Assembly (NCBI GenBank): GCA_002733415.1
Contig: NVVR01000002.1
Coordinates: 1 to 64,000 of the forward strand
Reading direction: 5' to 3'
Source of the DNA: Kordia sp.
Lineage (GTDB): Bacteria > Bacteroidota > Bacteroidia > Flavobacteriales > Flavobacteriaceae
Length of the DNA stretch: 64,000 bases
The notes beneath the pieces were generated by a model. That model saw only the letters and a program-made list of their open reading frames with translations, was not told the DNA's origin and searched no databases. Shown here piece by piece: positions 9,636 through 54,528 of this stretch (positions are counted from its first letter, which is position 1; the number at the start of each line of letters is the position of its first letter). The position numbers and the translations under genes are program-made.

Positions 9636-10661
9636 TCAGTCAGGCTCATTTGTGTTATAAAGCGCTAAAGCAGTTCGTAACTTATAGTTTACTCTTTTTT
9701 TCAAACGTTCTGGCTGAATCACTTTCATGCTTTCCCCAAACCCTAAAATCAGACGTTCCAATTCGTAATTAATTTTTACCTTGATGTTAATGTCAACACT
9801 TCCATTAAGATACTGATGTTCTATAGTTTGTGAGTGGTGTAAAGGTTTGGTAACAACATAAGGAGCATTACTTTTATCAATCCATATTTTAATATTGCAT
9901 GCACGTTCTCCTTGATTAACAGTTACTCCAATAGCATCTTTATAAAATGTATCAGGATCAAAACCTTGATCTAGATACGCTGTTTTTAAATCATAATCAA
10001 TACTGATAATTCTATCTAAAGCTAAATTAGAAACACCATTTGATCCAGCTCTTTTACCAACTAAGAACCAACGGTTGTTATATTCTTTTAAGATATACGG
10101 ATGAAATGTAATTTCAGAAGAATCTTTAGCTTTAAAAGATTTATAGGTTAATTTAATAACAACTTTTTTAAGAATGGCTTGGTATAACTCATCTAAGTAC
10201 TGTAGGCCTTTTAAATTGTCATTCTTATCTAAATGAATAATAGACTGATGGTCTTTTTGTGAAGAATAAACAGAATCTTCTAATCGTTGAAGTACACCGT
10301 CCATTTCTTTAAATAAGGAGAAGTCTTTAAATTGTCTCAATACCGCAATGGCTTCACTCATTACTTTTATATCATTATCAGTTACTGGAATATTCATAAT
10401 ACTATAGGCTGTATCAGTATAGCGATAATATTTTTTGTCGTACACTTCAATGGGTGCGTTATAGCCTAATTTGTCACTACGCATCAACTGTATGTCTAAT
10501 TGTACAGTACGCTTACTAACATTAATGTCTTTTCCTTCATATTCATAAAGGGCATCTGAACAGGCTTCAATTAAATCATTCAAAGTCCATTGCTTATAGT
10601 TGTTGCGTAAACAGTTATCAATGGTTTTGTATCGTATCAGAGCATTCTTATTAGCAGCCAT
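9636..10661 (-). CDS. WYL-domain transcriptional regulator (wHTH-WYL-WCX architecture)
   Basis: N-terminal HTH-like region. Classic WYL motif FHPYILKEYNNRWFLVG. C-terminal WCX-like segment PLHHSQ...LERLILGFGESMKVIQPERL. Confidence 0.75.
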   Translation of the reverse strand: MAANKNALIRYKTIDNCLRNNYKQWTLNDLIEACSDALYEYEGKDINVSKRTVQLDIQLMRSDKLGYNAPIEVYDKKYYRYTDTAYSIMNIPVTDNDIKVMSEAIAVLRQFKDFSLFKEMDGVLQRLEDSVYSSQKDHQSIIHLDKNDNLKGLQYLDELYQAILKKVVIKLTYKSFKAKDSSEITFHPYILKEYNNRWFLVGKRAGSNGVSNLALDRIISIDYDLKTAYLDQGFDPDTFYKDAIGVTVNQGERACNIKIWIDKSNAPYVVTKPLHHSQTIEHQYLNGSVDINIKVKINYELERLILGFGESMKVIQPERLKKRVNYKLRTALALYNTNEPD

Positions 10662-10662
10662 T

Positions 10663-11301
10663 TTATCGTTTATTAATTAGTTCTATTTCAGATTTTAAGT
10701 TAGTTCTTGCTATATCTTCATATTTGTTTTTAAAGATAGCTGTAGTAAAAATTGATTTTTTGTTAAGAAAATGTTCTAATACTTTTTTACGCCCTTTATA
10801 ATAAATGATATTTGGGACTGTTTTGTATTCAGTACGTATCTTTTTAGTGTAGTCAAGATATACTTCCCATGATTGGCCAAGTATTGCTAAATCAAAATCA
10901 ATTAAAAAAGAAGTGTCATTGGAATTTGATGTATGTGTTTTGGTAGCTAATATGTGTGCTGTAATGTTAGCCGTATTTACATTTTGTAATTTCAATTTAT
11001 TTAATACTTTAACTGCAAAATCAGCACTTTTTTCTTCATTATCTTTTTTCCAAACATTGTAGATAATGTCATGATAAAATATAGCTAAGATAAATTCTGT
11101 TAGGTCTTCAATTTCCGAACTGTACATGTCTAGGTAACTAAACAGTTCATTTAAATGCGTTAAATTATGATAGGCTCTAAACGATTCAGAGTAATGTTTG
11201 TGTAAGCCTTCCCATAATTCTTCAATAACAGTTTTGTCTGTTGTATACTTTAGGAACACTTTTTCAAAGCGATTTTTTAACTCCATTTGAATAAATTTCA
11301 T
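10663..11301 (-). CDS. HD-domain metal-dependent phosphohydrolase. It is in an operon with the WYL regulator.
   Basis: The H...HD motif (YHNLTHLNELF ... IFYHDIIY). Its stop is 1 nt from the WYL start. Confidence 0.6.
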   Translation of the reverse strand: MKFIQMELKNRFEKVFLKYTTDKTVIEELWEGLHKHYSESFRAYHNLTHLNELFSYLDMYSSEIEDLTEFILAIFYHDIIYNVWKKDNEEKSADFAVKVLNKLKLQNVNTANITAHILATKTHTSNSNDTSFLIDFDLAILGQSWEVYLDYTKKIRTEYKTVPNIIYYKGRKKVLEHFLNKKSIFTTAIFKNKYEDIARTNLKSEIELINKR

Positions 11302-11310
11302 TAAAAGTAA

Positions 11311-12774
<1,464 letters not shown>

Positions 12775-12783
12775 ATAAAGATA

Positions 12784-12806
12784 ACTACGCAAAATGACTG
12801 CGTAGG
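12784..12806. promoter_or_regulatory. Palindromic motif ACTACGCA-aaatgac-TGCGTAG, perfect copy, between the rtcB paralog and the NTase gene
   Basis: An 8-bp inverted repeat with a 7-nt spacer. It could be a DNA operator or an RNA stem-loop. Confidence 0.45.
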
Positions 12807-12843
12807 TTGTTTTCATCTTTGACAGGTAATTAAAAAAGAGAAA

Positions 12844-13590
12844 ATGAAAACAGCAATATTAAATAAGTTAGCAAGCATAGAAAAGAAGAAAAATATAGAG
12901 ATACTTTTTGCTTGTGAGTCAGGAAGCAGAGCATGGGGCTTTGCTTCCCCGGATTCAGATTATGATATCCGTTTTATATACAAACATAAAACTGAGTGGT
13001 ATTTGAATTTATGGGAGAAAAAAGATACTATAGAATTTATGACCGCTGAAGATTTGGATGGATCTGGTTGGGATTTACGAAAAGCAACACTCTTATTAGC
13101 AAAGTCTAATGCCTCATTATTGGGTTGGTTGTTTTCGCCAGTAATATATAGAGCTGATGAATCTTTTTTAAAAGAAATACAAACGCTAGCAAACGAAAAC
13201 TTTAATCCAGTAGCTGGTTTTTATCACTTTCATTCTATGAGCAAGAGTTTCTTAGATAAAGTAATTGAAGAGGAAGTGAGTTTAAAGAGTTTTTTTTATG
13301 CTTTAAGAACTACGTTATGTAGTAATTGGATATTGAAAAACGGAACTATTCCTCCAGTTGTATTTGCAGAGTTGCTAGTTTTAGTAGATGCAGATATAAA
13401 GGTAGCAATAGAAGAGCTAGTGGCAATAAAAGCAACTAAAAATGAAAGCTTTCAAGCCTTAAAAAACGATACTTTATTTAACTATTTGAAAGACATGATA
13501 ACAAAAAATAACTTGAATAGAAATTCAGTTTTATTAAATAAAGCTGATGGAGAATCGTTCAATGAATTCTTTTTAAAAACAGTAGTGTGA
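12844..13590 (+). CDS. Pol-beta-superfamily nucleotidyltransferase (RlaP-like candidate), copy 1
   Basis: NTase signature GSRAWGFASPDSDYDIRFIY (GS...D.D). It lies immediately downstream of the RtcB paralog. Confidence 0.6.
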   Translation: MKTAILNKLASIEKKKNIEILFACESGSRAWGFASPDSDYDIRFIYKHKTEWYLNLWEKKDTIEFMTAEDLDGSGWDLRKATLLLAKSNASLLGWLFSPVIYRADESFLKEIQTLANENFNPVAGFYHFHSMSKSFLDKVIEEEVSLKSFFYALRTTLCSNWILKNGTIPPVVFAELLVLVDADIKVAIEELVAIKATKNESFQALKNDTLFNYLKDMITKNNLNRNSVLLNKADGESFNEFFLKTVV

Positions 13591-14657
13591 TGACTATAGC
13601 AGAATTAAAGAAATCGGGAAGCATCATATTTGAATGTATAAGCGGTAGTCGAGCATACGGACTTGACACCGCTACATCCGATACGGATATACGAGGTGTC
13701 TTTATTGCACCAAAAGAGCAGTTTTACGGATTACATTATACCGATCAAGTAAATGATGAAACCAATGATGTTGTGTATTATGAGCTTAAAAAGTTTATAG
13801 GATTGTTATTAAAAAACAACCCAAACATCATGGAGTTATTAAACATGCCAGAGGAATGTATTTTATATAAACATCCTTTGTTTGATTTAATAAAAAAGGA
13901 ATTATTTTTATCAAAACTGTGTAGAAATACGTTTGCTAATTATGCTTTTACACAAATTAAAAAGGCAAGAGGATTGAATAAAAAAATAGTGAATCCTGTT
14001 GATCAGAAAAGAAAGTCTGTAGAAGATTTTTGTTATGTAAGAACAGGGAAACAATCAGTTTTGTTAAGGGGTTTTTTAAATATGAATCAATTAAAAAGTT
14101 CCGATTGTGGTTTGGCAAAAATTACTCATATGAAAGACTGTTATAACCTCTTTCACAATGTATACTTGGACTATAACGGAATAGCTAGAAATGACGCCAA
14201 CGAAGTTTGTTTGAGTTCTATTCCTAAGGAAGAAACTCCTATAGGGTTATTGTATTTTAATGTAGATGGATACTCATCATATTGCAAGAGATACAAAGAA
14301 TATTGGTCATGGGTAGCTAAACGAAATGAAGAACGGTATAAAAGTAATATTTCACATAGTAAAAATTACGATGCTAAAAACATGATGCATACTTTTCGGT
14401 TATTGCATATGGCAAGGGAAATTGGATTAAAAGGCGTCATAAATGTGAGGCGTTCTGATCGAGATTTTCTACTAGCAATAAAAAATGCTGAGTTTGAATA
14501 TGCTGAGTTGGTTGAAAAAGCAGAAGTATTACGACAAGATTTGGATAAAATTTATGAAAGTACAGATTTAATGGAGAAACCAGATGTAGCACTAGTGGAT
14601 AAGCTATTACTGAAATTAAGAGCTATCTATTATGAACAAAGAGTAGAGAAAGACTAA
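13587..14657 (+). CDS. Pol-beta-superfamily nucleotidyltransferase, copy 2 (paralog of the upstream gene)
   Basis: GSRAYGLDTATSDTDIRGVF. Its start overlaps the upstream stop by 4 nt, consistent with translational coupling. Confidence 0.6.
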   Translation: MMTIAELKKSGSIIFECISGSRAYGLDTATSDTDIRGVFIAPKEQFYGLHYTDQVNDETNDVVYYELKKFIGLLLKNNPNIMELLNMPEECILYKHPLFDLIKKELFLSKLCRNTFANYAFTQIKKARGLNKKIVNPVDQKRKSVEDFCYVRTGKQSVLLRGFLNMNQLKSSDCGLAKITHMKDCYNLFHNVYLDYNGIARNDANEVCLSSIPKEETPIGLLYFNVDGYSSYCKRYKEYWSWVAKRNEERYKSNISHSKNYDAKNMMHTFRLLHMAREIGLKGVINVRRSDRDFLLAIKNAEFEYAELVEKAEVLRQDLDKIYESTDLMEKPDVALVDKLLLKLRAIYYEQRVEKD

Positions 14658-14732
14658 TTAGTAATTCTAACGAGCCTTTTTTCTTACTTTTGAGAATAAA
14701 GTAAAAGCATATTTCAATAAACCAAATCTGAA

Positions 14733-15446
14733 ATGACAACGAGAAACAGAGGAAAAGAAGGAAGCGACGATAAGCTTTTTGGAACTTCAAAAATGCAACA
14801 ACTGATAAAGGAGGCGTTACAGGACATGTCCTATTTATTATCTAGAGATTATGCTGATAAATCAGCTGTACAATTGGTAGGGAATCGATATCGTTTAAAT
14901 GTGAGGCAACAAAAAGCGATACGGGGTATGAGTGCCTCAGTTACTCAAGTGGAACAAAGAAAATTAAGTGAGCTATCTGTTAACCAATTAGTAGGACGGG
15001 AAATAATGATTGATGGATTTAATCTATTAATAGTATTGGAAAGTGCATTGTCAGGAGCATATTTATTTAAAGGAATGGATAATTGCTACAGAGACCTTTC
15101 CGGAGTACATGGGAGTTATAAACGAGTACAACAAACAGAAAAGGCATTGTTGTTAATAGGTGATTTTTTAAAAGAGTGTGCGGTAGGAAAAGTTACTTGG
15201 GTGTTTGACAAACCGGTTTCCAACAGTGGTCGATTAAAAACGAGAGTCAGAGAATTAGCCGAAGCACATGGATTTAATTGGGAAGTGATATTAGATAATA
15301 ATCCTGATAAACTATTAGCGGAAAGTAACAAGATTGCAATTAGTTCCGATGCTTGGATATTAGATCGCGCTAAAAGGTGGTTCAACTTAGCAGGGGATTT
15401 AATTGAAAACAAAATAGAGATTACAACTATTATAGAGAGTTATTAA
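14733..15446 (+). CDS. Hypothetical protein, possibly an NYN/PIN-like nuclease fold
   Basis: An IMIDGFNLLIVLES segment resembles the N-terminal IDG.N catalytic motif of NYN domains. This is a weak assignment. Confidence 0.3.
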   Translation: MTTRNRGKEGSDDKLFGTSKMQQLIKEALQDMSYLLSRDYADKSAVQLVGNRYRLNVRQQKAIRGMSASVTQVEQRKLSELSVNQLVGREIMIDGFNLLIVLESALSGAYLFKGMDNCYRDLSGVHGSYKRVQQTEKALLLIGDFLKECAVGKVTWVFDKPVSNSGRLKTRVRELAEAHGFNWEVILDNNPDKLLAESNKIAISSDAWILDRAKRWFNLAGDLIENKIEITTIIESY

Positions 15447-15460
15447 TAACTTTCATGTCA

Positions 15461-15602
15461 AAGTAAGAAATAGAGAACGAAAAATCGGAATTGCGATGCA
15501 TAGCATCAGGCATGTAGATTCGAAAGTGATCGTTACGAAGTAATTTCCTATTCTTTGACTTGATTTTTTTGGTTCGTTTTTTTATCAAGAAAAAAATGAA
15601 CA
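15461..15602. repeat. Non-coding ~140-bp conserved block, copy A (homologous to 20570-20712)
   Basis: About 80% identity to copy B, including cttgatttttttggttcgtttttttatcaagaaaaaaatgaa. It starts 15 nt after the stop of the upstream gene. Confidence 0.6.
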
Positions 15603-15864
15603 GATAGTTCTTGAAAGACTTAATATGATGGTTTTAATAAAATTTATTAAATAAACTAACTTTCAAGTTTTATTTAGAAAAACAACAAATAAGCACTCGA
15701 ATTTGGTGAATAGGAACAATTTGCACCATATTTGTAGTAGAATTATTAACAAAAAATAAAACGAAAACCACCTATGACGATATTTTTAAACATAAAAAGG
15801 ACGCTGAAAAGCTATTTTGATTGTAAGAAATAGGTTAATTTTCGAAAAGATATCTCTTTAAAAA

Positions 15865-15895
15865 GCGTCCAAACTAAAATTTGGACGCTTTTTTT
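15865..15895 (+). terminator. Rho-independent terminator closing non-coding module A
   Basis: gcgtccaaactaaaatttggacgc followed by 7 T. The homologous hairpin is at 21094-21121. Confidence 0.6.
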
Positions 15896-16433
15896 ATGAC
15901 TTTTTTCGAACACTATTTTACTGTTATAAAATTGGAGCTTTAAATGCTAAATACAAGCACAACAATTGGTTGTGAATTTGTTTACTATCTGTAGGAATAC
16001 GGGCAGGGATTCTAGCACCTAAAAACAGCATAACTTACTGGTAACGAGAAATATAAAGGCAGATATTTTCTTGTGTAATCCAAAAAATGAATTGACCTTT
16101 GCATCGCAGTATTACCGAATAAAACGGAACAACTAGCAAAAACTAAATTATTAATCAAACCAATTAAATATTGGAATGACGTATAAATAATTTGAATTAT
16201 TTTTTTACTTAGATGAGGCATAAAATTTAAACATAGCCTCAGTTACGGTTATATTTTATAACAATATATAAGTGAAAAAGGAGCATATTATATATGACAT
16301 TTTAATTTTTAAATGGTTTATCAACACCGAAGTACTATGACTTTATTCAATAGCTACCAATACATTCCACAAGGCCTAGGTGCTTTGTTATGTATGCTTC
16401 GGGATTTCATTCGTAAATAATATTTCCATTATA

Positions 16434-16476
16434 TATGAAAAAAAGTCCGAAGCTATAACGTTTCGGACTTTTTTCA
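16434..16476. terminator. Bidirectional terminator-like hairpin about 120 bp upstream of rtcB
   Basis: An A-run, then agtccgaagctataacgtttcggact, then a T-run. Confidence 0.55.
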
Positions 16477-16598
16477 TTCTAGGTCTATCTTGAAGAATCT
16501 CCGAGACCAAATTTAAAAGTGATTTTATACAACCATGTTCCGTAATAGGAAGAACTATCAATGCATTAACATTTGATGGAAGGATCACTTATATCATA

Positions 16599-18008
16599 AT
16601 GTATAAGAAAAATATAATGGGAAAGAAATTAAGCGGAAGAGACTTAATCAAGTTAGGTTTTCCGCAAAACAATAGTATTAATGTGACTTTAGGTCAGATT
16701 AATAGATATCAGAAAAGAAAAAAGAAAGAACAAATATTACTCGAAGCTAAGCAAGTATTACTACATCCTGAAAATTATAAGGGAGATGGTGTTTGGGGAA
16801 AAATAGCAGAAAGTCTGCTAGATCCAGTACTAGTGACGAAGCAAGTGTTAAACTCAGTACGTGCACCATTTCAAATATTTGGAGAAAATGAAATTGATGA
16901 TAAAGCCAAGTATCAATTATTTGATGCTTTAAAATTACCAGTGGCAGTTGCAGGAGCCTTAATGCCAGATGCACATGCTGGATATGGTTTGCCAATAGGT
17001 GGAGTATTAGCAACAAAAAATGCTGTAATTCCTTATGGAGTAGGAGTAGATATTGGTTGCAGAATGAGTTTAAGTATTTATCCAATACCAACATCTTATT
17101 TAAAAGGAAAGCAGCATCAACTTGCAAATATTTTATCAGAACATACCAAATTTGGAATGTATGAAACACATAAGGTAAAACATGACCATGAAATTTTTGA
17201 GCGTGAGGAATTTAAAACTATTCCTTTAGTAAAGCGATTAAAAGACAAAGCGTACAAGCAATTAGGAACTTCAGGTGGTGGAAATCATTTTGTAGAGTTT
17301 GGAGTAGTAACTATTAAGGATGAAAAGAATGAATGGGACTTACCATTAGGCGATTATGTTGGCGTATTAAGCCATAGTGGTTCTAGAGGATTAGGAGCAA
17401 ATATTGCAAAACATTATACCTATTTAGCTACTAAACAATGTCCCTTACCCAAGCACGTACAGCAGTTGGCTTGGTTGGACTTGAACACACATGACGGGCA
17501 AGAATATTGGTTGGCAATGACATTAGCGGGTGATTATGCGAAGGCATGCCATGATAATATTCATAAACGCATAGGGAAATTGTTAGGAGCAAGACCTGTA
17601 GCTACAATCGAAAACCATCACAATTTTGCTTGGAAACAAGAGGTAAACGGTGAAGAATGTATTGTGCATAGAAAGGGAGCAACTCCTGCTGAAAAGGGTG
17701 AATTGGGAATTATTCCAGGTTCTATGACAGCACCAGGATTTATTGTTCGTGGTCTGGGGAATCAAGATAGTTTAGCATCTGCATCACATGGAGCAGGACG
17801 TCTTTTTTCTAGAAGAAAATGTAAAGAGAAATTCACTAAAAGTGAAATCAAAAAGCAATTGCAAGCAAACGATGTTACGCTTATAGGAGGTGGAGTAGAT
17901 GAAGCACCTATGGCTTATAAGGATATCGAGAAGGTAATGGCGAATCAAAAAGAATTGGTTGAGGTTATTGGAACATTTACACCGAAAATAGTACGAATGG
18001 ACAAATAA
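16599..18008 (+). CDS. rtcB: RtcB-family RNA ligase, release-factor-H-coupled type
   Basis: Canonical motifs PDAHAGYGLPIGGV, VDIGCRMSL, GGGNHFVEFG, HSGSRGLG, HHNFAW and SHGAGR. It lies immediately upstream of prfH. The true start is probably MGKKLSG at about 16617. Confidence 0.85.
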   Translation: MYKKNIMGKKLSGRDLIKLGFPQNNSINVTLGQINRYQKRKKKEQILLEAKQVLLHPENYKGDGVWGKIAESLLDPVLVTKQVLNSVRAPFQIFGENEIDDKAKYQLFDALKLPVAVAGALMPDAHAGYGLPIGGVLATKNAVIPYGVGVDIGCRMSLSIYPIPTSYLKGKQHQLANILSEHTKFGMYETHKVKHDHEIFEREEFKTIPLVKRLKDKAYKQLGTSGGGNHFVEFGVVTIKDEKNEWDLPLGDYVGVLSHSGSRGLGANIAKHYTYLATKQCPLPKHVQQLAWLDLNTHDGQEYWLAMTLAGDYAKACHDNIHKRIGKLLGARPVATIENHHNFAWKQEVNGEECIVHRKGATPAEKGELGIIPGSMTAPGFIVRGLGNQDSLASASHGAGRLFSRRKCKEKFTKSEIKKQLQANDVTLIGGGVDEAPMAYKDIEKVMANQKELVEVIGTFTPKIVRMDK

Positions 18009-18030
18009 AATCAACAGTAAGAAATAAAAA

Positions 18031-18723
18031 ATGGACAAAATAATTCAAATAACGGCAGCAAGAGGACCAGCAGAATGTTGTTGGGTAGTAGCTCAAGTAC
18101 TCAAGGTTTTTATAGCAGAAGTTAAGGCTAAAGGAATTGAGTATATAATTCTGCAACGAGAAAAAGGTATTGAAAACGGTACTGTACAATCAGTGAGTAT
18201 TCAGTTATCAGGAACCGATGTGAATAGTTTTTTAACTACCTGGACTGGAACAGTACAATGGGTTGGAACATCTGCATTTCGAAAATATCACAAACGTAAA
18301 AATTGGTTTATAGGGGTGTATGAATTGGAACAATTATCCCTTTCGGAATTAAATGAAAAGGATATTAGTTTTCAAACGATGCGAAGTACTGGTCCTGGTG
18401 GACAAAATGTAAACAAAGTGAATTCAGCAGTAAGGGCTATTCATACTCCAACTGGAGTACAAGTAGTAGCAATGGATAGCCGATCACAACATCAGAATAA
18501 AAAATTAGCAATAACACGTTTAAAGGAAAAGGTAATGGAAGCCAACAGACAACAACTTAAAACCATGGAATTGAACCTATGGAAAAATCATTTGAGTTTG
18601 GAGCGTGGGAATCCGATTAGAGTTTTTAATGGGACTGATTTTAAAAAGAAAAAAGTAATTGCTTCCTATAAAAATAATCGCAATCAGTTAAAAAACGACT
18701 TGCGAAAAGAACTAAAGAATTAA
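18031..18723 (+). CDS. prfH: Peptide chain release factor H (release-factor homolog with a GGQ motif)
   Basis: STGPGGQNVNKVNSAVR GGQ motif. A short RF-like protein of 230 aa, 22 nt downstream of rtcB. Confidence 0.8.
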   Translation: MDKIIQITAARGPAECCWVVAQVLKVFIAEVKAKGIEYIILQREKGIENGTVQSVSIQLSGTDVNSFLTTWTGTVQWVGTSAFRKYHKRKNWFIGVYELEQLSLSELNEKDISFQTMRSTGPGGQNVNKVNSAVRAIHTPTGVQVVAMDSRSQHQNKKLAITRLKEKVMEANRQQLKTMELNLWKNHLSLERGNPIRVFNGTDFKKKKVIASYKNNRNQLKNDLRKELKN

Positions 18724-18727
18724 GAAA

Positions 18728-19279
18728 ATGGGAAATTTAATAGATAAATATTTATTTCAAGCGTTGGATTCCTATCCATACGAATTGGAAACAACTGTAG
18801 AGTCATTAAACTATGCGCTTTCATACGATGCTAAAAATACAACAGCTTTGTGTTTAATGGGACGTCTTCATGCGGAAATACTAAGTGATTATGAAACAGC
18901 TAAGGATTATTTCCAACAAGCGTTAGCAGAAAATATACAGGCAGTAGAGGTGTACATACATTATGCTTCGGTATTACTATGTAATGAAGATTATAAAGAG
19001 GCTGAAAAATTACTGGATTATGCATTAACAATTAAAGGCTCAGATAAAGCTGTATTGTATGCCATGCAAGCAATTATGTACGAGCATTTAACAGCGTATA
19101 AAAAAGCATTAAAGTGTTTGAAAAAAGCTAAAGTGCATGCATATAACAATTGTTATACTGAAGGGATAAAAAGAGAAGAGACACGTATTAAAGACAAGAT
19201 GCCAAAGAAAAAAAAGGCCTCTAAGAAAAAATCAAAATCCTCATCTGATAAGAAAAAGAAGAAAAATAAAAAGAAGTAA
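18728..19279 (+). CDS. TPR-like helical protein with a lysine-rich C-terminal tail
   Basis: Helical repeats. The C-terminus is KKKKASKKKSKSSSDKKKKKNKKK. It starts 4 nt after the prfH stop. Confidence 0.45.
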   Translation: MGNLIDKYLFQALDSYPYELETTVESLNYALSYDAKNTTALCLMGRLHAEILSDYETAKDYFQQALAENIQAVEVYIHYASVLLCNEDYKEAEKLLDYALTIKGSDKAVLYAMQAIMYEHLTAYKKALKCLKKAKVHAYNNCYTEGIKREETRIKDKMPKKKKASKKKSKSSSDKKKKKNKKK

Positions 19280-19280
19280 A

Positions 19281-19826
19281 ATGGGAGCACCACATAATAA
19301 GAACAGATATGGTGAAGTGTGGCCTAAAGACAGAATAACTTATACCTTAAAGGAATTAATACTTTTAAAAGATTTAGTTGTTTTATCGGGTGGTTGGGCT
19401 TGGCATTTTCTATCGCCAAAAAATCATATTGAATATAAGCATGCACATGATCATAAGGATATGGATTTATTTATTCATCCTAAAAATGTAGCAGAGGTGA
19501 TGCATATTATTCAACAGAATGGTTTTAAAAAGGTATGGACACGTTATGATAGATTACCTAGTGAAGAGAATTTTAGGCGTTATGAAAAAACTGTAGAAAC
19601 GGAGACTGGCAAAGAAATTCGTATAACAATAGATTTTTTTGTTAGTGCCTCCATACCAGTTCAGAAAGCTAAAGGTTGGACTGTCGTAGCCCCATCTTTT
19701 TTATTAGGCTTGTATACTAACATTCATTCGAGTGATAAATGTTGGGCTGTACAGGCTGCATTTAAATTATTAATGAAAAATATCAACCCATTAGACAGGA
19801 ATGAATTAATTACTATTCCTGACTAA
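19281..19826 (+). CDS. Hypothetical protein, possibly a minimal nucleotidyltransferase fold
   Basis: LSGGWAWHF...HDHKDMDLFI resembles the G[GS]...D.D NTase motif. It starts 1 nt after the upstream stop. Confidence 0.3.
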   Translation: MGAPHNKNRYGEVWPKDRITYTLKELILLKDLVVLSGGWAWHFLSPKNHIEYKHAHDHKDMDLFIHPKNVAEVMHIIQQNGFKKVWTRYDRLPSEENFRRYEKTVETETGKEIRITIDFFVSASIPVQKAKGWTVVAPSFLLGLYTNIHSSDKCWAVQAAFKLLMKNINPLDRNELITIPD

Positions 19827-19849: not shown

Positions 19850-20443
19850 ATGAAAACAACAGATAAAATTATAATAATAGACCTTGAGGCAACTTGCTGG
19901 AAAGGTCCTGTTCCGCAAGGACAAGTAAACGAAATAATAGAAATAGAAATTTGTGTTCTAGACACAAAAACGGGAATCATTTCAAAAAATGAAGGGATTT
20001 TAATAAAACCTGAGCGTTCAACAGTGAGCCCTTTTTGTACCGAGTTAACCACAATTACTCAAGAATTGTTAGATCAAGAAGGAATTTCTTTCGAGCAGGC
20101 TTGTAATGAGCTACGTATACAATACAATAGTTATCAATACACATGGGCAAGTTACGGTGCTTATGATTTAAACATGTTAAAGCAACAATGTAAATTCAGA
20201 GGATTGGATTATCCAATGGCTCAAAATCATATTAATGTAAAAACATTATTTACTAAAGTAAAAGGCTTGAAACGAAAAGTAGGAATGAAAGGTGCTTTAG
20301 AGATGTTAGAAATTCCATTAGAAGGCACGCATCATAGAGGAGTAGATGATGCTAATAACATAGCGAAAATTTTAGACTGGTGTTTAAATACATCAGCTAA
20401 AGCTGAAAGTTGTTGTTTAACTAAGGAAGTGCAATTTTCATAG
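19850..20443 (+). CDS. DEDDh-family 3'-5' exonuclease (ERI-1 / KapD-like)
   Basis: Exo motif I IIIIDLEATCW, motif II YGAYDLNML, motif III THHRGVDDANNIAKIL. Confidence 0.75.
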   Translation: MKTTDKIIIIDLEATCWKGPVPQGQVNEIIEIEICVLDTKTGIISKNEGILIKPERSTVSPFCTELTTITQELLDQEGISFEQACNELRIQYNSYQYTWASYGAYDLNMLKQQCKFRGLDYPMAQNHINVKTLFTKVKGLKRKVGMKGALEMLEIPLEGTHHRGVDDANNIAKILDWCLNTSAKAESCCLTKEVQFS

Positions 20444-20471
20444 TTATGACGAATGATTTTAGAATAAAATG

Positions 20472-20506
20472 AAAGGCAACCATTATGGTTGCCTTTTTTG
20501 TTTTTA
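20472..20506 (+). terminator. Rho-independent terminator of the rtcB-prfH operon
   Basis: aggcaaccattatggttgcct followed by a T-run. Confidence 0.7.
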
Positions 20507-20569
20507 GTGAGACCTGTTCTATATGTTTTTCTGAATATTATTACTTACTTTAATTAGAGGTTGACAGAT

Positions 20570-20712
20570 TAAGAAATAATGAACGAAAAATCGAAATTGC
20601 AATGCGATAGCATTAAGTATGTAGAATTGAGAGTGAATGGTGCTTTAGCAATTTCCTATTGTCTGTCTTGATTTTTTTGTTTCGTTTTTTTATCAAGAAA
20701 AAAATGAAAAGC
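20570..20712. repeat. Non-coding ~140-bp conserved block, copy B
   Basis: Homologous to 15461-15602. It is followed by a poly-C tract. Confidence 0.6.
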
Positions 20713-21093
20713 CCCCCCCTTGATTTATAAACTATTTGTTAGATGTAAAAATAGGGATTGAAACTAATTTTATCAAAAGGTTACGACGCTATTGGTTTTT
20801 AGGGTAAAAGTAAATTACAGGTACTAATTCTCTGTGTTGTTAAAGGTATATGAACGCTATATTGTCTTATAAAGACTCTAAATAGTGCTCCATATTTGTA
20901 CTTTAGTATTAAATTATCCCATATTTGCAGTATATAAATGAATCAAAATAGAATACATATAGCACCTAAATCGCTGTTTAACCAGTGTGATTATCGTCAG
21001 GTAAGTGAATTACCTACACGAGAAGGGGCGTTTTGTGTCTATTGTTATAAGAATTGATAGTGTAAAAACTATAAAAACATATAAGAATTACAA

Positions 21094-21121
21094 GCGTCCA
21101 AGAAATTGGACGCTTTTTTTA
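21094..21121 (+). terminator. Rho-independent terminator closing non-coding module B
   Basis: gcgtccaagaaattggacgc followed by 8 T. Confidence 0.6.
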
Positions 21122-21550
21122 TGGATTTTTTTGAGTATGATTATAAAATAATAAAAGAAATAGAAAAGTAGTATTTGGACCCTAAGCAGAAGAGAGACAG
21201 TCAGTTGCATATTATCCAGTTATCGGTTGAAAAACGGACAGGAATCGCTATGTCTAAAAATAAGCGTAACTAATTGATTATCAGTAAATTAAATGTAATT
21301 TTTTCTTGTGAAATCTAAAAATAGGTTTCATCTTTGCACCGTAGTTAAGCAACAAATATGTTTATGTTTACTATCTATATAAAAAGACAAATTTTTAAAA
21401 ATATAAATATGATACGTTTTAATTCACATCCATTTTCAAGCCCCCTTTCGCAAAGCCGTCAGGATTATTGTCCGGAAGTAAATAGAAGCGTCTGTAGTAC
21501 TATACAACGAAGGAATATGTAGTTATATATATCTTCGTAAATTACTTAAA

Positions 21551-21574
21551 GGCGCCTATATAGGCGCCTTTTTT
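21551..21574 (+). terminator. Terminator-like hairpin
   Basis: ggcgcctatataggcgcc followed by a T-run. Confidence 0.5.
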
Positions 21575-21771
21575 ATGCGCTGTAATCAGAGCTTTAAAAT
21601 GAAATAAAGTTAATGCAAAAATTGGAGAGTAGGCAAATGTTGGTTTGTTGCGCTCGTTTGCTAAACGAGTTTGTGTAATAGCAATGATTGGTTCAAATGC
21701 TTGCATTCACGAAAACCCAAAAAAAATAAAAATTGCTTGAGTAATTCCGTTGCTCTCCGCAAGAATAAATA

Positions 21772-21845
21772 AGACAAGGTGGCTGAAAGGTTAAGGCAAC
21801 GGTCTGCAAAACCGTTTTTTATGAGTTCGATTCTCATCCTTGTCT
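21772..21845 (+). tRNA. tRNA-Cys (anticodon GCA)
   Basis: Acceptor gacaagg/ccttgtc. Anticodon arm acggt-cTGCAaa-accgt. T-arm atgag-ttcgatt-ctcat. Folded by hand. Confidence 0.7.
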
Positions 21846-21904
21846 CAATGATTGAAGCAGTATCAAACTTGTTTGAAAACTGTGAAAATCCAATTTGTGA
21901 TTTG

Positions 21905-21936
21905 ATGAGAACGCGCAGCAATCTCATCCTTGTCTC
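21905..21936 (+). other. tRNA-Cys 3'-end relic (T-stem plus acceptor 3' strand with an expanded 13-nt loop)
   Basis: atgag-aacgcgcagcaat-ctcatccttgtctc duplicates the 3' end of the adjacent tRNA-Cys. Confidence 0.5.
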
Positions 21937-21941
21937 GTAAT

Positions 21942-22025
21942 GGGAGTTCGCCAGAGTTGGAGAGCTGGGGCGGTCTGTAACACCGTTGTCGAAAGACTGA
22001 GTAGGTTCGATTCCTATAACTCCCA
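21942..22025 (+). tRNA. tRNA-Tyr (anticodon GTA), type II with a long variable arm
   Basis: Acceptor gggagtt/aactccc. Anticodon loop ctGTAac. Variable arm tgtcgaaagaca. T-arm tagg-ttcgatt-ccta. Confidence 0.7.
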
Positions 22026-22122
22026 CAATAAAATAAGGTTCTAGAAAGGGACCGTCAGGTTGAATATATATATAGTTACGGCTGACTATATGAATTTAGA
22101 GATGTATTTAACCTGACAAAAT

Positions 22123-22195
22123 AGTATCGTAGTTCAATGGCTAGAGCACCCGACTGTCTCTCGGGAAGCTGCGGGTTCGAATCCCGTCGGTACTG
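22123..22195 (+). tRNA. tRNA-Asp-like (anticodon GTC), with an atypical U at position 37
   Basis: Acceptor agtatcg/cggtact. D-arm gttc...gagc. Anticodon stem cccga/tcggg with loop ctGTCtc. T-arm gcggg-ttcgaat-cccgt. Confidence 0.55.
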
Positions 22196-22206
22196 CTAAC
22201 TAATTA

Positions 22207-22279
22207 CTGGGAAGATAACGATTGGCTGTTTACCCGCTTTGGATGCGGGAGGTTGCAGGTTCGAATCCTGCTTCTCAGA
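22207..22279 (+). tRNA. tRNA-Pro-like (anticodon TGG), with a non-canonical G8 and a weak D-stem
   Basis: Acceptor ctgggaa/ttctcag. Anticodon arm cccgc-ttTGGat-gcggg. T-arm gcagg-ttcgaat-cctgc. Confidence 0.5.
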
Positions 22280-22533
22280 CGATGTAACCAAAATCAAGCT
22301 TGCTTGAATTTTGGTTTGAGCTGAGACATCGCAGGATGACGTAGTCAATCCTGCTTCTCAGACGATGTGACCAAATCAAGTTATTTGAATTTGGTTTGAG
22401 CTGAGGCATTGCAGGATGACGTAGTCAATCCTGCTTCTCAGACGATGTAACCAAAATCAAGCAAGCTTGAACTTTGGTTTGAGCTGAGGCATTGCAGGAA
22501 AGACGAAGTCAGTCCTTCTTCTCAGACGAATAT
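22254..22533 (+). repeat. Tandem repeat of ~80-83 bp, about 3.3 units. Each unit is a tRNA-like minihelix (acceptor strands plus a T-stem with a 14-nt loop) followed by a perfect 13-bp hairpin.
   Basis: Units begin at about 22254, 22331, 22411 and 22494. Each contains gcagg-atgacgtagtcaat-cctgc-ttctcag-a followed by the hairpin aaccaaaatcaag...cttgaattttggtt and then ctgag(g/a)c. Confidence 0.7.
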
Positions 22534-22609
22534 GCAGGGATGGCGAAATGGTAAACGCACCTGATTTAGAATCAGGATTTTGAGAGTTCGAGTCTCTCTC
22601 TCTGTACCA
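22534..22609 (+). tRNA. Type-I (short variable loop) tRNA with anticodon TAG, identity uncertain. CCA is encoded.
   Basis: Acceptor gcaggga/tctctgt (two G-U pairs), U8, G18G19. Anticodon arm cctga-ttTAGaa-tcagg. 5-nt variable loop. T-arm gagag-ttcgagt-ctctc. Discriminator A, then CCA. Confidence 0.5.
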
Positions 22610-22611
22610 AT

Positions 22612-22683
22612 AGATTTATGGTGTAATGGATAGCACACTAGGTTACGACCCTAGGAGTATGAGTTCGAATCTTATTAAATCTA
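22612..22683 (+). tRNA. tRNA-Arg (anticodon ACG)
   Basis: Acceptor agattta/taaatct. D-arm gtgt-aatggata-gcac. Anticodon arm ctagg-ttACGac-cctag. T-arm atgag-ttcgaat-cttat. Confidence 0.7.
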
Positions 22684-22688
22684 CAAAT

Positions 22689-22759
22689 TGACTTGTGATG
22701 TAATGGTAGCATATAAGATTTTGATTCTTATTGTATAGGTTCAACTCCTGTCAGGTCAA
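22689..22759 (+). tRNA. tRNA-Gln (anticodon TTG)
   Basis: Acceptor tgacttg/caggtca. Anticodon arm taaga-ttTTGat-tctta. T-arm atagg-ttcaact-cctgt. Confidence 0.65.
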
Positions 22760-22766
22760 CTATTAA

Positions 22767-22792
22767 CTGGGAATATAACGATGTTTACCCGC
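22767..22792 (+). other. 5'-half relic of the tRNA-Pro-like gene
   Basis: ctgggaatataacgatgtttacccgctt matches 22207-22245, then diverges. Confidence 0.5.
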
Positions 22793-22836
22793 TTGCTTGA
22801 GATGTTATTAAGTAAAGCCCTATATGAAATCTAAAT

Positions 22837-22900
22837 GTCACACTGAGCTTATCGAAGTGCAATTGATAGTCAAGGTTTTATTGGTTTTCGCGAAGCTCAG
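22837..22900. repeat. REP-like hairpin element, copy 2
   Basis: gtcacactgagcttatcgaagt pairs with ttcgcgaagctcag. Confidence 0.5.
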
Positions 22901-22907
22901 ACAAAAT

Positions 22908-22980
22908 GGTGTTTTCAGCTTATTTGGTAAAGTGCTAGACTGTGAATCTAGAGAACAGGGTTCGAATCCCGAAAACACCC
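22908..22980 (+). tRNA. tRNA-His (anticodon GTG) with an encoded G-1
   Basis: Extra 5' G. Acceptor gtgtttt/aaaacac. Discriminator C. D-arm gctt-atttggta-aagt. Anticodon arm ctaga-ctGTGaa-tctag. The T-stem is imperfect. Confidence 0.6.
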
Positions 22981-23023: not shown

Positions 23024-23220
23024 GGTGGGAAGTTTGTAATGTAATTAAAAGCTAATAATAAGTTTAAAGGTTTTGTGTTCTTTTAAACGTTTAAATATCA
23101 AGCTAGTCTTGTTGGGTGTTTCTGTATAGCACTATTGTATAAAGTATTGCAATGATTTTGTATGATGACTTTATATTCAACTAGATTTGGAGGTTTTAGA
23201 TTGTTTACCAAAAAATAATC

Positions 23221-23258
23221 ACACACTGTGGTCATGGGTTCGAATCCCATCCTCATTA
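23221..23258 (+). other. tRNA 3'-half relic (T-arm atggg-ttcgaat-cccat plus acceptor 3' cctcatt-a)
   Basis: There is no matching 5' acceptor strand upstream. Confidence 0.45.
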
Positions 23259-23259
23259 A

Positions 23260-23316
23260 GTTGAGGTAGTTCAGTTTGGTTAGAACAACAGCGTAGATGT
23301 CGTCGGTTCGAATCCG
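23260..23316 (+). other. Chimeric tRNA relic: acceptor 5' plus D-arm (gttc-agtttggtta-gaac) joined to a T-arm (gtcgg-ttcgaat-ccgat), with no anticodon arm
   Basis: Only 12 nt separate the D-arm from the T-arm, and the acceptor strands do not pair. Confidence 0.4.
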
Positions 23317-23342
23317 ATCTTAAACTTTGGAGAAATCCATTG

Positions 23343-23385
23343 GTTTATGTAGCTCAACGGTAGAGCACTACACTCTTTTAGGTAG
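23343..23385 (+). other. tRNA 5'-part relic (acceptor, D-arm gctc-aacggta-gagc, and an anticodon-like arm). No T-arm follows.
   Basis: A D-arm with GG and an anticodon-like stem ctac/gtag. No ttcgaat follows. Confidence 0.4.
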
Positions 23386-23729
23386 AGAGAACAATAGACT
23401 CAAAATCTATTTTCAAAAAGCTGATTATCTTTTTAAACTAATCACCAGCCAGTCACGCTGTAAAATTGATAAAATAATGGATTGAAAATCAGCTATGCTT
23501 TGTAAGCACAAGTGTTTTAAGTGAAGCAATCTTAAATGTACTTTGAATAACTGATTTTTAGTATTGTAAAGGAATTACTTTTTGAGTTTTCTAATGATAG
23601 TTAGCTATTATATATAATTTTCAAAAATGGATTCTTGACAGTTATAATATGAGTGTATTCCGTATGTAAAAGATGATTTTCTTTCTGTTGTTTTTAATAA
23701 ATTAAAGAAACTAAGTAATAAATAGAATA

Positions 23730-24830
23730 ATGAAACGAGTACGAATTAATGAGGGGAAAATTGGATTGGTTTTCAAAAACGGAAACTATTTAAAAGTAAT
23801 TACCGAAGGGGTATATTGGTTAGGAATTAATCAAAGAGTGCTAATGTACAATCAGGCAACTTCTTTTGCTACACCTATAGCCTTAGAACTTTTAGTAAGA
23901 GATGAAAAATTAACGGCACTTATTGATGTTGTTGAGGTAAAAGATAATGAATTAGTACTAGTGCATGAAAATGGAATTTTTAAAACAATCTTAAAATCTG
24001 GAAGATATACCTACTGGAAAGGTTTGATAAATAGAACCTATACTCGAGTAGATTTAAGTAAAATTTATATTACGGAACAAATTGAAAAATCATTGTTTAC
24101 AAAACCTGAAATGGTGCAGTACATCAGATTATTTGAAGTGGCTGCTTTTGAAAAAGCGGTATTGATTATTGATGATGTATACACAAAAACATTAGATGGA
24201 GGAACATATCGATTTTGGAAAAATGATACCACTATAAAAATTGCGAAAGTTGATTTACGTCAGTTGCAATTAGAAATTTCAGGCCAAGAGTTATTAACCA
24301 AGGACAAGGCTGCAATCCGAATTAACTTTTATACTCAGTATAAAGTTACTACTATTGAAAAAGCCTTGTTGGAAAACAAGGATTATGAAAAGCAATTGTA
24401 CGTTTTAATGCAATTGGCATTAAGAGCTTATGTTGGGACCTATACTTTAGATGAATTGTTAGAGCGTAAAGAAAATATTGCTGCTGCAGTGTTTGAAAAT
24501 GTGAAGAATGCTGTTTCAAAATTGGGTGTATCTGTTTTAAATTGCGGTATTAGAGATGTTATCTTAACGGGTGAAATGAAAGAAATCATGAATCAGGTAT
24601 TGGTAGCTCAAAAAAAAGCACAAGCAAATGTAATTACAAGGCGAGAGGAAACAGCTGCTACTAGAAGCTTATTGAATACTGCTAAGTTAATGGAAGAGAA
24701 TAGCATGCTATTTAAGTTGAAAGAAATGGAGTATGTGGAGAAAATTTCTGATAAAATTGGAGAGATTTCAGTTTCCGGAAATGGAGGTGTGATTAAACAA
24801 TTGAGGGATATTTTTTCCGTTAATAATTAA
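23730..24830 (+). CDS. SPFH / band-7 (slipin-like) domain protein
   Basis: The C-terminal half has an SPFH-like pattern (ILTGEMKEIMNQVLVAQKKAQANVITRREETAATRSLLNTAKLMEEN). Confidence 0.55.
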   Translation: MKRVRINEGKIGLVFKNGNYLKVITEGVYWLGINQRVLMYNQATSFATPIALELLVRDEKLTALIDVVEVKDNELVLVHENGIFKTILKSGRYTYWKGLINRTYTRVDLSKIYITEQIEKSLFTKPEMVQYIRLFEVAAFEKAVLIIDDVYTKTLDGGTYRFWKNDTTIKIAKVDLRQLQLEISGQELLTKDKAAIRINFYTQYKVTTIEKALLENKDYEKQLYVLMQLALRAYVGTYTLDELLERKENIAAAVFENVKNAVSKLGVSVLNCGIRDVILTGEMKEIMNQVLVAQKKAQANVITRREETAATRSLLNTAKLMEENSMLFKLKEMEYVEKISDKIGEISVSGNGGVIKQLRDIFSVNN

Positions 24831-54295: not shown

Positions 54296-54528
54296 GTGAT
54301 TGTTGAATGATGATTTTCGATTGTTGATTTTAGAAGTAAAAACCAAAATAAAACTGCATTAGGGATAGAAGCGACATCCTTTTTAAGCGTCCGTTCGAGT
54401 GAATTTATGAAGTGATAACGAATGAATTTGTACCGAGAACAGCTTAAAAAGATATAGCGGATAGCCCGACCAAAATTCGTGAAATTTTGGAAATGCACAA
54501 AAACAATAAATTTAAATAGAGTAGTAAT

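Follow-up and report, generated by a model that had tools for sequence, protein, structure and literature searches.

In our study, a window of 64,000 nucleotides from Kordia sp. (Flavobacteriaceae; NCBI GenBank assembly GCA_002733415.1, contig NVVR01000002.1, positions 1 to 64,000 of the forward strand) was found to contain a cluster of eight tRNA genes, all on the + strand and all upstream of a gene encoding a slipin. The full 64-kb window was scanned with ARAGORN and with the Rfam tRNA model (gathering score 29 bits). ARAGORN called seven tRNAs between nucleotides 21773 and 22980, which scored 38.9–67.3 bits with Rfam, and the Rfam model recovered all eight, so the eight tRNA-like genes of an earlier sequence-based note (hereafter the original prediction) were confirmed. 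ARAGORN found no further tRNA in the window outside 21773–22980, and eight tRNAs in 1.2 kb are therefore far beyond chance. Many closely spaced genes on the same strand, here eight in 1.2 kb on the + strand, are characteristic of the supernumerary tRNA arrays known as L-arrays, and on sequence comparison we regard the window genes as a reduced copy of an array of this kind. The eight genes were as follows.

21773–21846, + strand: tRNA-Cys-GCA with U73 (ARAGORN; Rfam 63.1 bits; 93% identity to array Cys elsewhere)
21942–22026, + strand: tRNA-Tyr-GTA with a long variable arm and A73 (ARAGORN; Rfam 38.9 bits; 94% identity to array Tyr elsewhere)
22123–22196, + strand: tRNA-Asp-GTC with anticodon loop CUGUCUC (U37) and G73 (ARAGORN structure; Rfam 59.8 bits)
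22207–22280, + strand: tRNA-Pro-TGG of the array type with C1-G72, A73 and an odd D-arm (Rfam 32.0 bits, 22209–22277)
22534–22609, + strand: tRNA-Leu-TAG, 76 nt, of class-I shape, with A73 and encoded CCA (ARAGORN; Rfam 67.3 bits)
22612–22684, + strand: tRNA-Arg-ACG with an acceptor-stem GC content of 0.14 (ARAGORN; Rfam 60.5 bits)
22689–22760, + strand: tRNA-Gln-TTG with U1-A72 (ARAGORN; Rfam 61.1 bits)
22908–22980, + strand: tRNA-His-GTG with encoded G-1 and C73 (ARAGORN; Rfam 50.9 bits)

The tRNA-Pro-TGG was not among the ARAGORN calls; its Rfam score and its identity of 94.6% over 74 nt (blastn) to array Pro-TGG genes called by ARAGORN in related loci bear out the Pro-TGG-like element that had been proposed. 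The element previously designated only as X-TAG was also found to be a tRNA gene, and its identity can now be given from its Leu anticodon, A73, encoded CCA and lack of a long variable arm. Most of the window tRNAs were 88–95% identical to their orthologues in other genera (blastn). The most divergent member was tRNA-His-GTG, the T-stem of which contained two non-canonical pairs in the Rfam alignment and which gave blastn matches of only 22 nt with other array His genes. The acceptor stems quoted in the original prediction (gacaagg, agtatcg, agattta, tgacttg, gtgtttt) were correct, and so was their description as AT-rich, the acceptor-stem GC content of the window tRNAs being 0.14–0.57 versus a mean of 0.72 in eight canonical tRNAs located in the flanks of related loci. 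The GC content of the window was flat at about 33%, with no anomaly at the array.

For a family-wide comparison, 16 slipin homologues were aligned and one genome per species was then scanned, which gave 80 Flavobacteriaceae loci (Jejuia, Winogradskyella, Aquimarina, Tenacibaculum, Maribacter, Dokdonia, Kordia and others; single loci are cited below by L numbers). The array was searched for as same-strand ARAGORN tRNAs in the 6.5 kb upstream of slipin. An array of 1–19 genes was present in 69 of the 80 loci (70 of 81 with the window) and at least five tRNAs in 55 of them (56 of 81), with 652 genes in all, and the spacers in related loci were 10 nt or shorter in 399 of 582 cases. According to Tran et al. 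2016 (PMC4758250), a tRNA array unit is defined by at least 20 tRNA genes at two or more per kb; the largest arrays found here, with 19 tRNAs (L027 and L081), fell below that count and were dense enough. The genes followed a conserved order, beginning with Lys, Ser, Ser, Asn, Cys, Tyr, Trp, Asp, Pro and Glu and continuing with Val/Ile/Met, Lys, Leu-TAG, Leu-TAA, Arg-ACG, Gln, His and Phe, from which members come and go. The tRNA present in most loci was Asp (52), followed by Gln (50), Leu-TAG (49), Glu and Tyr (46 each), Phe (45), and Cys and Arg-ACG (41 each); Gly was found in three loci, Ala in two and Thr in none. The fuller arrays contained about 20 isoacceptors, that is, Lys, two Ser, Ala, Asn, Cys, Tyr, Trp, two Arg, Asp, Pro, Glu, Val, Ile, Met, two Leu, Gln, His and Phe. 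The original prediction had read the window set, with three of the four GUN-anticodon tRNAs (Tyr, Asp, His) and an Arg tRNA, as the targets of colicin E5- and colicin D-type nucleases. This part of it did not hold: because fuller copies carry about 20 general isoacceptors, the window set is what remains after loss and not a targeted choice.

Two further groups of tRNA-like genes were observed in the related loci. A gene of 71–72 nt, which ARAGORN called as Tyr-ATA and which has the loop GUAUAUC with U37, was located just before Phe-GAA in nine arrays (L004 7948–8018, L006 8953–9023, L008 8727–8798, L015, L018, L020, L022 and others) and is not present in the window. In L081, a Kordia metagenome-assembled genome, six further tRNA-like genes (Val, Val, Met, Gly, Gly, Asp) form a separate cluster of another kind at 855–1520, 8 kb upstream of slipin; its acceptor stems are unusual in beginning with A, and its Asp has A37.

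The array genes are real tRNAs, the structure of which has been kept by compensatory change. RNAalifold regained the cloverleaf for 39 distinct array Leu-TAG and 43 distinct array Asp sequences, with compensatory double changes in 11 of 20 pairs and 15 of 21 pairs, respectively, and the array tRNAs of the relatives scored up to 77 bits with Rfam, most of them at least 40. Under the canonical discriminator-base identity rules, the discriminators matched for Asp, Cys, His, Ser, Tyr, Trp, Pro, Lys and Phe (Asp G73, Cys U73, His C73 with G-1, Ser G73, Tyr A73, Trp G73, Pro A73 with C1-G72). CCA was encoded in 23 of the 652 array genes. The array tRNAs differed from the canonical ones in acceptor-stem GC content (0.51 versus 0.72) and in total GC content (46% versus 61%). 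The U37 nucleotide was conserved in 53 of 53 array Asp genes, which form two divergent sub-families, and in 46 of 46 array Glu genes; in the window Asp, the loop lies at 22155–22161. Array Leu-TAG was 74–77 nt long in 46 of 50 genes (median 75 nt), and array Leu-TAA was likewise mostly of class-I size, with A73. In environmental loci (Bacteroidota), the GC-rich canonical Asp had A37 and the canonical Leu-TAG was 83–85 nt long, and among 185 tRNAs of these loci, U37 was found only in low-GC Asp and Glu with array-type loops.

Every indirect line points to an accessory set, as had been proposed. At the same locus the array contained from 0 to 19 tRNAs within one genus (e.g., Winogradskyella, Aquimarina), and sole copies of essential genes could not vary in this manner; in L063 a canonical, GC-rich Pro-TGG lay in the same 21 kb as the Pro-TGG of the array; and Asp, Glu and Leu have diverged in structure. 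That the eight genes instead form an ordinary housekeeping operon, with no other copy of these isoacceptors in the genome, is scarcely credible. The absence of any other tRNA from the 64-kb window would agree with such an operon, but stable content and canonical structure, as expected of one, were not seen: the content was variable, Asp, Glu and Leu were non-canonical, and the stems were low in GC. The two Pro-TGG genes of L063 and the canonical Asp (A37) and Leu-TAG (83–85 nt) that exist in Bacteroidota beside the array types also speak against it, as do the pseudogene fragments contained in the array itself.

These fragments, and the repeat units that accompany them, were located as follows.

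21624–21683, + strand: tRNA-Ser-GCT fragment, 5' 60 nt only, a pseudogene (blastn, 86.7% identity over 60 nt to array tRNAs elsewhere)
21847–21937, + strand: Cys-type 3'-end-repeat unit, 91 nt (read from the sequence; recurs in relatives)
22281–22529, + strand: three tandem Pro-type 3'-end-repeat units of about 80 nt (TRF, RNAfold)
22768–22905, + strand: truncated second Pro 5' half followed by a long hairpin (read directly from the sequence)

Ser-GCT stands before Cys in related arrays, and the Ser fragment marks the 5' edge of the window array. The truncated Pro 5' half (about 22768–22800) ends at the anticodon loop and is followed by about 105 nt, in which a long imperfect hairpin (about 22842–22903) carries a Pro-like 3' strand, gaagctcagac, at its end. 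As judged from its sequence, the window array is a reduced and partly decayed copy kept in the family order.

The relation of the array to phage tRNA sets was also examined. In the original prediction, the AT-rich stems were taken as a hallmark of phage or mobile elements, and this view was not upheld: the array is chromosomal, there is no GC anomaly, no phage genes were found in the conserved neighbourhood by open reading frame (ORF) clustering, and a blastn comparison of the 1.75-kb array region with 50,697 phage records gave only single-tRNA-sized matches. The Cellulophaga phage phi4:1 contains an array of 23 tRNAs, including a class-I-like Leu-TAG of 76 nt (L205 4003–4078) that is 79.5% identical to that of the window; its Asp and Glu have A37, not U37. 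The array resembles phage tRNA sets in character but sits in the chromosome as a vertically conserved module. That the window array is a decaying relic, gained horizontally, possibly from a phage tRNA set, and now neutral or nearly so, is plausible for this one copy but still unlikely. The Ser and Pro fragments, the repeat clutter, the weakened His T-stem and the presence of only eight of about 20 family members would suit such a relic, as would the terminators between the array and the repair operon described below, the highly variable content between species (some loci have none) and the phi4:1-like Leu-TAG. On the other hand, seven of the eight genes still scored 38.9–67 bits, most match their orthologues from other genera at 88–95% identity, many genera share the position and the order, and no phage genes or GC anomaly accompany them; the compensatory substitutions across the family indicate long-term purifying selection.

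The genes flanking the array in the window, together with a tRNA-like RNA upstream of slipin, are given below.

9636–15446: further repair cluster with WYL/WCX regulator (−), 212-aa protein (−), RtcB, two RlaP nucleotidyltransferases and DUF434/DUF5616 (Pfam)
16599–18008, + strand: second RtcB RNA ligase (Pfam RtcB, E 1.4e-83)
18031–18723, + strand: release factor H, PrfH (NCBIfam TIGR03072 prfH, 231.5 bits, cut-off 166.65)
18728–19279, + strand: TPR protein with a Lys-rich C-terminal tail (Pfam TPR)
19281–19826, + strand: 181-aa protein, weakly similar to Pol-beta-type nucleotidyltransferases (NCBIfam Lnu nucleotidyltransferase, E 5e-4, weak)
19850–20443, + strand: RNase T-family 3'-5' exonuclease (Pfam RNase_T, E 1e-15)
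about 23224–23387, + strand: two tandem YrlA-like permuted tRNA mimics (reading of the Rfam YrlA alignment)
23730–24830, + strand: slipin/SPFH (Band-7) protein (Pfam Band_7, E 6e-26)

By ORF clustering, with the window included, the conserved partners were slipin (81 of 81 loci), the TPR gene (51), RtcB (28), PrfH (19) and the WYL regulator (14), RtcB and PrfH being counted within 10 kb; no conserved gene was found downstream of slipin, where the larger clusters look like ordinary housekeeping genes. In the relatives the module has the order (RtcB–PrfH), TPR, tRNA array, YrlA-like RNA, slipin. The distance from the TPR stop codon to the first tRNA was 85 nt in the median and 14 nt at minimum (TPR homologues, 51 loci with the window), and this short distance suggests that the TPR gene and the array are co-transcribed in relatives. 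The original prediction had linked the array to RNA repair through the adjacent RtcB ligases. That link was strengthened by the conserved TPR/YrlA-like/slipin module, by RtcB in 28 and PrfH in 19 of 81 loci and by the precedent of the Anabaena array; RtcB itself, however, is not a constant partner.

Some other features of the neighbourhood were observed. The 1.3 kb at 20443–21772 contain no ORF of at least 100 aa, and terminator-like hairpins located there hint that the interval from the exonuclease gene to the array harbours one or two short transcription units that are not annotated. The 1.15 kb from the DUF434/DUF5616 gene to the second RtcB (15446–16599) contain no + strand ORF of at least 60 aa, and Rfam gave only weak sub-threshold leader-peptide matches there. 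The C-termini of the TPR proteins were of two types: those of most genera are Lys/Arg-rich (about 50–65% K/R in the last 30 residues), whereas the protein of Winogradskyella and relatives ends in a conserved ...WFQNRLNNLL in place of the K/R tail. A conserved ORF of 106–107 aa was found between the array and slipin in 11 loci (e.g., L081 6486–6809) and is not present in the window.

The slipin has more than 7000 homologues, is 70–90% identical across Flavobacteriaceae genera and shows no evident transmembrane segment in the window protein. Upstream of it, at a distance of 340–500 nt, each of the two mimics consists of a T-arm, an acceptor stem closed by a loop and a D-arm, so that the window has the arrangement of a Band-7 gene with a tRNA-like RNA upstream; two RtcB and two RlaP genes lie within 12 kb upstream of slipin, as in the neighbourhoods of Band-7 repair systems. 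The Rfam YrlA model matched 23205–23312 at 33.8 bits (E 1.9e-5), which is under its gathering score of 69, and a weak Rfam tRNA match at 23260–23326 was a chimera of the D-arm of the first mimic and the T-arm of the second. Of the 81 loci, counting the window, 71 had such modules in the kilobase preceding slipin, 101 in all by pattern search; the opposite strand gave none, and 1.46 Mb of control DNA gave two. The closed acceptor stem occurred in 63 distinct strands that were 97% paired, which is strong covariation. The mimic was also found at loci without a tRNA array. The modules were two to three in tandem, the last one often with an anticodon-like arm. No match to TROVE (Ro/Rsr) was found among the 14 flanking proteins scanned with Pfam. 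The Flavo-1 RNA was considered as a general leader of slipin and rejected: it was upstream of slipin only in two Aquimarina loci, 2 of 8 examined. In these it directly precedes the slipin start codon (L030 9784–9882, L044 9702–9832), and in the window the motif is found at 54354–54475.

With the module in view, it is very improbable that the array is simply a codon-supply device for frequent codons or fast growth, unconnected with RNA damage. Codon supply is the classical explanation of extra tRNA genes (PMC10264068), and many of the array tRNAs are for A/U-rich codons, the genome having 33% GC. Duplicates kept for growth rate, however, are normally near-identical to the housekeeping genes and not divergent and AT-rich with altered loops, and neither the fixed linkage with TPR, YrlA-like RNA and slipin nor the frequent linkage with RtcB-PrfH would be expected of them.

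The 3'-end-repeat units are directly 3' of tRNA genes and end in copies of the T-stem and acceptor 3' strand of that tRNA, often in tandem. In the window, the Cys-type unit contains a hairpin, a copy of the tRNA-Cys T-stem in which the T-loop is replaced by ACGCGCAGCAA (11 bases), and a copy of the acceptor 3' strand, and it was also found behind array tRNA-Cys in eight loci (L023, L029, L030, L040, L041, L072, L074 and L078). The Pro-type unit contains a hairpin and an acceptor/T-stem minihelix with the T-loop replaced by UGACGUAGUCAA, the copy of the tRNA-Pro 3' end coming last; TRF gave a period of 80, 3.2 copies and 89% matches at 22264–22529, a single unit folds at −31.3 kcal/mol (RNAfold), and homologous single units were found in L006 and L063. 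The full form has the core GAGAAGTTTAYCCTGAGC, a variable hairpin and GTCGAAGG, located within the T-stem copy and followed by the copy of the acceptor 3' strand. On visual inspection of the sequences, the window Cys and Pro units look like carriers of a shortened version of this core. Units with the longer core were found behind array tRNA-Asp in a dozen loci and behind Leu-TAG in one (L002), sometimes in tandem. Examples of the repeat units in other loci are the following.

L030 7750–8019: repeat units
L071 7803–7938: repeat units
L084 828–915: repeat units
L109 7837–8450: repeat units

An exact core-pattern scan of metagenome contigs gave at least 120 stretches, which with three viral-contig hits made 123 loci for analysis. 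Among the 146 core matches listed for these loci, a tRNA lay within 400 nt upstream in 97, of many types and including canonical-looking ones, and a copy of the 3' end of the upstream tRNA followed the core in 82; the matches listed also included up to five tandem copies and units behind at least 28 tRNA types. In 13 Asp-type units, RNAalifold gave a weak consensus of −2.5 kcal/mol with one covarying pair, and this block is conserved by sequence rather than by covariation. In permissive Rfam scans of the window and L030, the units matched nothing beyond noise (C/D-box snoRNA, E = 2), and a literature search for the core sequence returned no relevant paper. A hammerhead was considered for the CUGA...GAA core and dismissed by eye against the consensus, the required CUGANGA and two flanking hairpins being absent. 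An origin as integrative-element scars was also dismissed, a crude tyrosine-recombinase motif being near the core in only 5 of the 123 environmental loci. The three core copies of L126 were uninformative because this 3.9-kb sequence was assembled as a concatemer.

The main rival to a decoding role is that the array RNAs do not decode and are decoys for tRNA-cutting nucleases, or substrates, sensors or cofactors of the slipin/YrlA-like/RtcB machinery. The invariant U37 of Asp (53 of 53) and Glu (46 of 46), the array Leu without a long variable arm, the physical coupling of the array to a non-chargeable tRNA mimic and slipin, and the minihelix-like repeat units scattered through the array all agree with it. 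For the Anabaena array, PMC8421152 brought up action as a sponge, and Burroughs and Aravind, as quoted in bioRxiv 10.1101/312249, proposed a tRNA-like cofactor for Band-7. Yet we consider such a role unlikely. The discriminators, His G-1, Pro C1-G72, the long arms of Ser and Tyr and the 7-nt anticodon loops have all been kept, which would be difficult to account for if synthetases and ribosomes no longer recognised the array RNAs; the fuller sets, with about one isoacceptor per amino acid, resemble a translation kit; and PMC8421152 reports the Anabaena array tRNAs as functional.

Previous studies have described several systems to which the locus can be compared. L-arrays were found in seven phyla, Bacteroidetes included, and that of Anabaena, which stays silent until translational stress induces it, promotes survival and shares its regulation with rtcB (PMC8421152). 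In Anabaena, the TrcR repressor controls the array, rtcB and a slipin-family gene as one stress regulon (PMC10272220). Like L-arrays and tRNA array units, the genes studied here are on the same strand, tightly spaced and non-periodic, are probably extra copies that bring no new anticodons and are patchy among relatives; they also have repair genes nearby, just as, in PMC8421152, rtcB adjoins the cyanobacterial arrays and is co-induced with them. They differ in number, with eight in the window and at most 19 in relatives against the 20-gene threshold of Tran et al. (PMC4758250, as above), and in the fixed place of the Flavobacteriaceae array inside the TPR/YrlA-like/slipin module. The U37 of Asp and Glu and the class-I Leu do not appear in the parts read of PMC8421152 and PMC4758250, and no homing endonuclease gene was seen near the window array.

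Burroughs and Aravind 2016 (NAR 44:8525), in the quotations given by bioRxiv 10.1101/312249, predicted a Band-7-associated tRNA-like RNA beside RtcB and noted that YrlA is sometimes beside Band-7. Band-7/slipin, an upstream tRNA-like RNA, RtcB and RlaP are all present in the window, and the YrlA-like mimic is probably this "Band-7-associated tRNA-like RNA" (b7a-tRNA). The quotations speak of a single tRNA-like RNA, whereas here tandem permuted YrlA-like modules were found together with a long array of near-canonical tRNAs; as quotations, they may understate the overlap. YrlA itself (RF02553; Salmonella rsr-yrlBA-rtcBA operon) shares the permuted layout of T-arm, closed acceptor and D-arm and the position next to RtcB-type repair genes; the RNA upstream of slipin differs in its score (33.8 bits in the window versus a threshold of 69), in its two to three tandem modules and in having slipin as partner, with no Ro/Rsr among the annotated neighbours. 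Phage tRNA sets for which a counter-action to tRNA-cleaving defences has been proposed or shown (PMC10264068, PMC11555353, PMC11464382) are likewise divergent and AT-rich and differ from host tRNAs in the anticodon loop, and one array member, the class-I-like Leu-TAG, resembles a Cellulophaga phage tRNA; the array, unlike these sets, is chromosomal, conserved across genera and beside cellular repair genes, and it has U37 where the Asp and Glu of phi4:1 have A37. The RtcB2-PrfH module, which repairs ribosomes cut by colicin E3 (PMC9304027, PMC9223846), is matched by RtcB followed by PrfH at 16599–18723, with a TPR gene and a putative Pol-beta nucleotidyltransferase, the accessories of PrfH-RtcB according to Burroughs and Aravind as reported in PMC6514570; the characterised module is without a tRNA array, YrlA-like RNA or slipin. 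What was already known is the L-array kind and the Band-7-associated tRNA-like RNA; what is new is that the array is constantly tied to slipin, the TPR gene and a concatenated tRNA mimic and that its odd anticodon loops do not vary.

Taking the evidence together, we lean towards the reading that the array holds tRNAs in reserve and belongs to an RNA-damage response module, and we hold it to be somewhat more probable than the opposite. The anatomy of the genes and its conservation are established here, whereas transcription, induction, processing, aminoacylation, use in decoding, nuclease resistance and any contact of slipin with RNA are inferred. Cleavage of tRNAs or rRNA by ribotoxins or under other stresses, with stalling of translation, would switch the module on. 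RtcB would religate the broken RNAs, and PrfH would free damaged, stalled ribosomes. RlaP, which adds nucleotides to damaged tRNA ends (PMC12776372), and the other nucleotidyltransferases would mend RNA ends together with the RNase T-like exonuclease. The array would provide a reserve pool of chargeable tRNAs, and these may escape the nucleases because their sequences, some of their anticodon loops (U37 in Asp and Glu) and the class-I Leu differ from the housekeeping forms. The YrlA-like RNA and slipin would form a scaffold, by analogy with Ro and Y RNA.

Several findings weigh against a reserve set of this kind. The window copy is decayed, with Ser and Pro fragments and a His T-stem with two mismatches, and it is without Glu, Lys, Phe, Leu-TAA and others. 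It lies 2.5 kb from the TPR gene, and terminator-like hairpins stand between the exonuclease gene and the array (20471–20497 and 21092–21115 by scan, about 21549–21575 by eye); because of this gap and these terminators, co-regulation with the repair operon is not evident in the window, and since the array is also partly decayed, it may run at reduced capacity. RtcB was found within 10 kb in only 28 of 81 loci, 34 loci with large arrays had no nearby RtcB, and nine RtcB-containing loci had almost no tRNAs, so that the closest partners of the array are the TPR gene and slipin, not RtcB. A pyrimidine at position 37 is very unusual in a decoding tRNA, and in E. coli, recognition by GluRS depends in part on A37; with U37, the array Asp and Glu could therefore be tRNAs that translation does not use.

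Three bolder readings, which we offer tentatively and regard as possible rather than probable, concern chargeable spares armoured against nucleases, a slipin/mimic ribonucleoprotein and an undescribed class of elements derived from tRNA minihelices. The U37 of every array Asp and Glu and the class-I Leu may be such armour against tRNA-cutting toxins on tRNAs that are still chargeable. The array tRNAs may form one unit with a new ribonucleoprotein of slipin and the concatenated permuted tRNA mimic. The GAGAAGTTTAYCCTGAGC...GTCGAAGG units may be a very widespread class behind many tRNA genes, also those of housekeeping type, in environmental DNA.

Why some bacteria keep long arrays of extra tRNAs is a standing question, and a role in translational stress has experimental backing for the Anabaena array alone. 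In the Flavobacteriaceae, the array shares one conserved neighbourhood, across many genera, with a kit for ribosome and tRNA repair, a tRNA-mimic RNA and slipin, so that the link is written in the genome. The carriers include culturable marine bacteria (Winogradskyella, Aquimarina, Tenacibaculum and others), which makes several questions directly approachable: whether the spares replace damaged tRNAs, whether U37 and the missing variable arm are a protection, and what role slipin and the tRNA mimic have. For phage tRNAs, it has been suggested that altered anticodon loops let them escape anticodon nucleases (PMC10264068). If the spares of the Flavobacteriaceae are nuclease-resistant and yet functional, these bacteria would be defending themselves by the very trick proposed for phage tRNAs.

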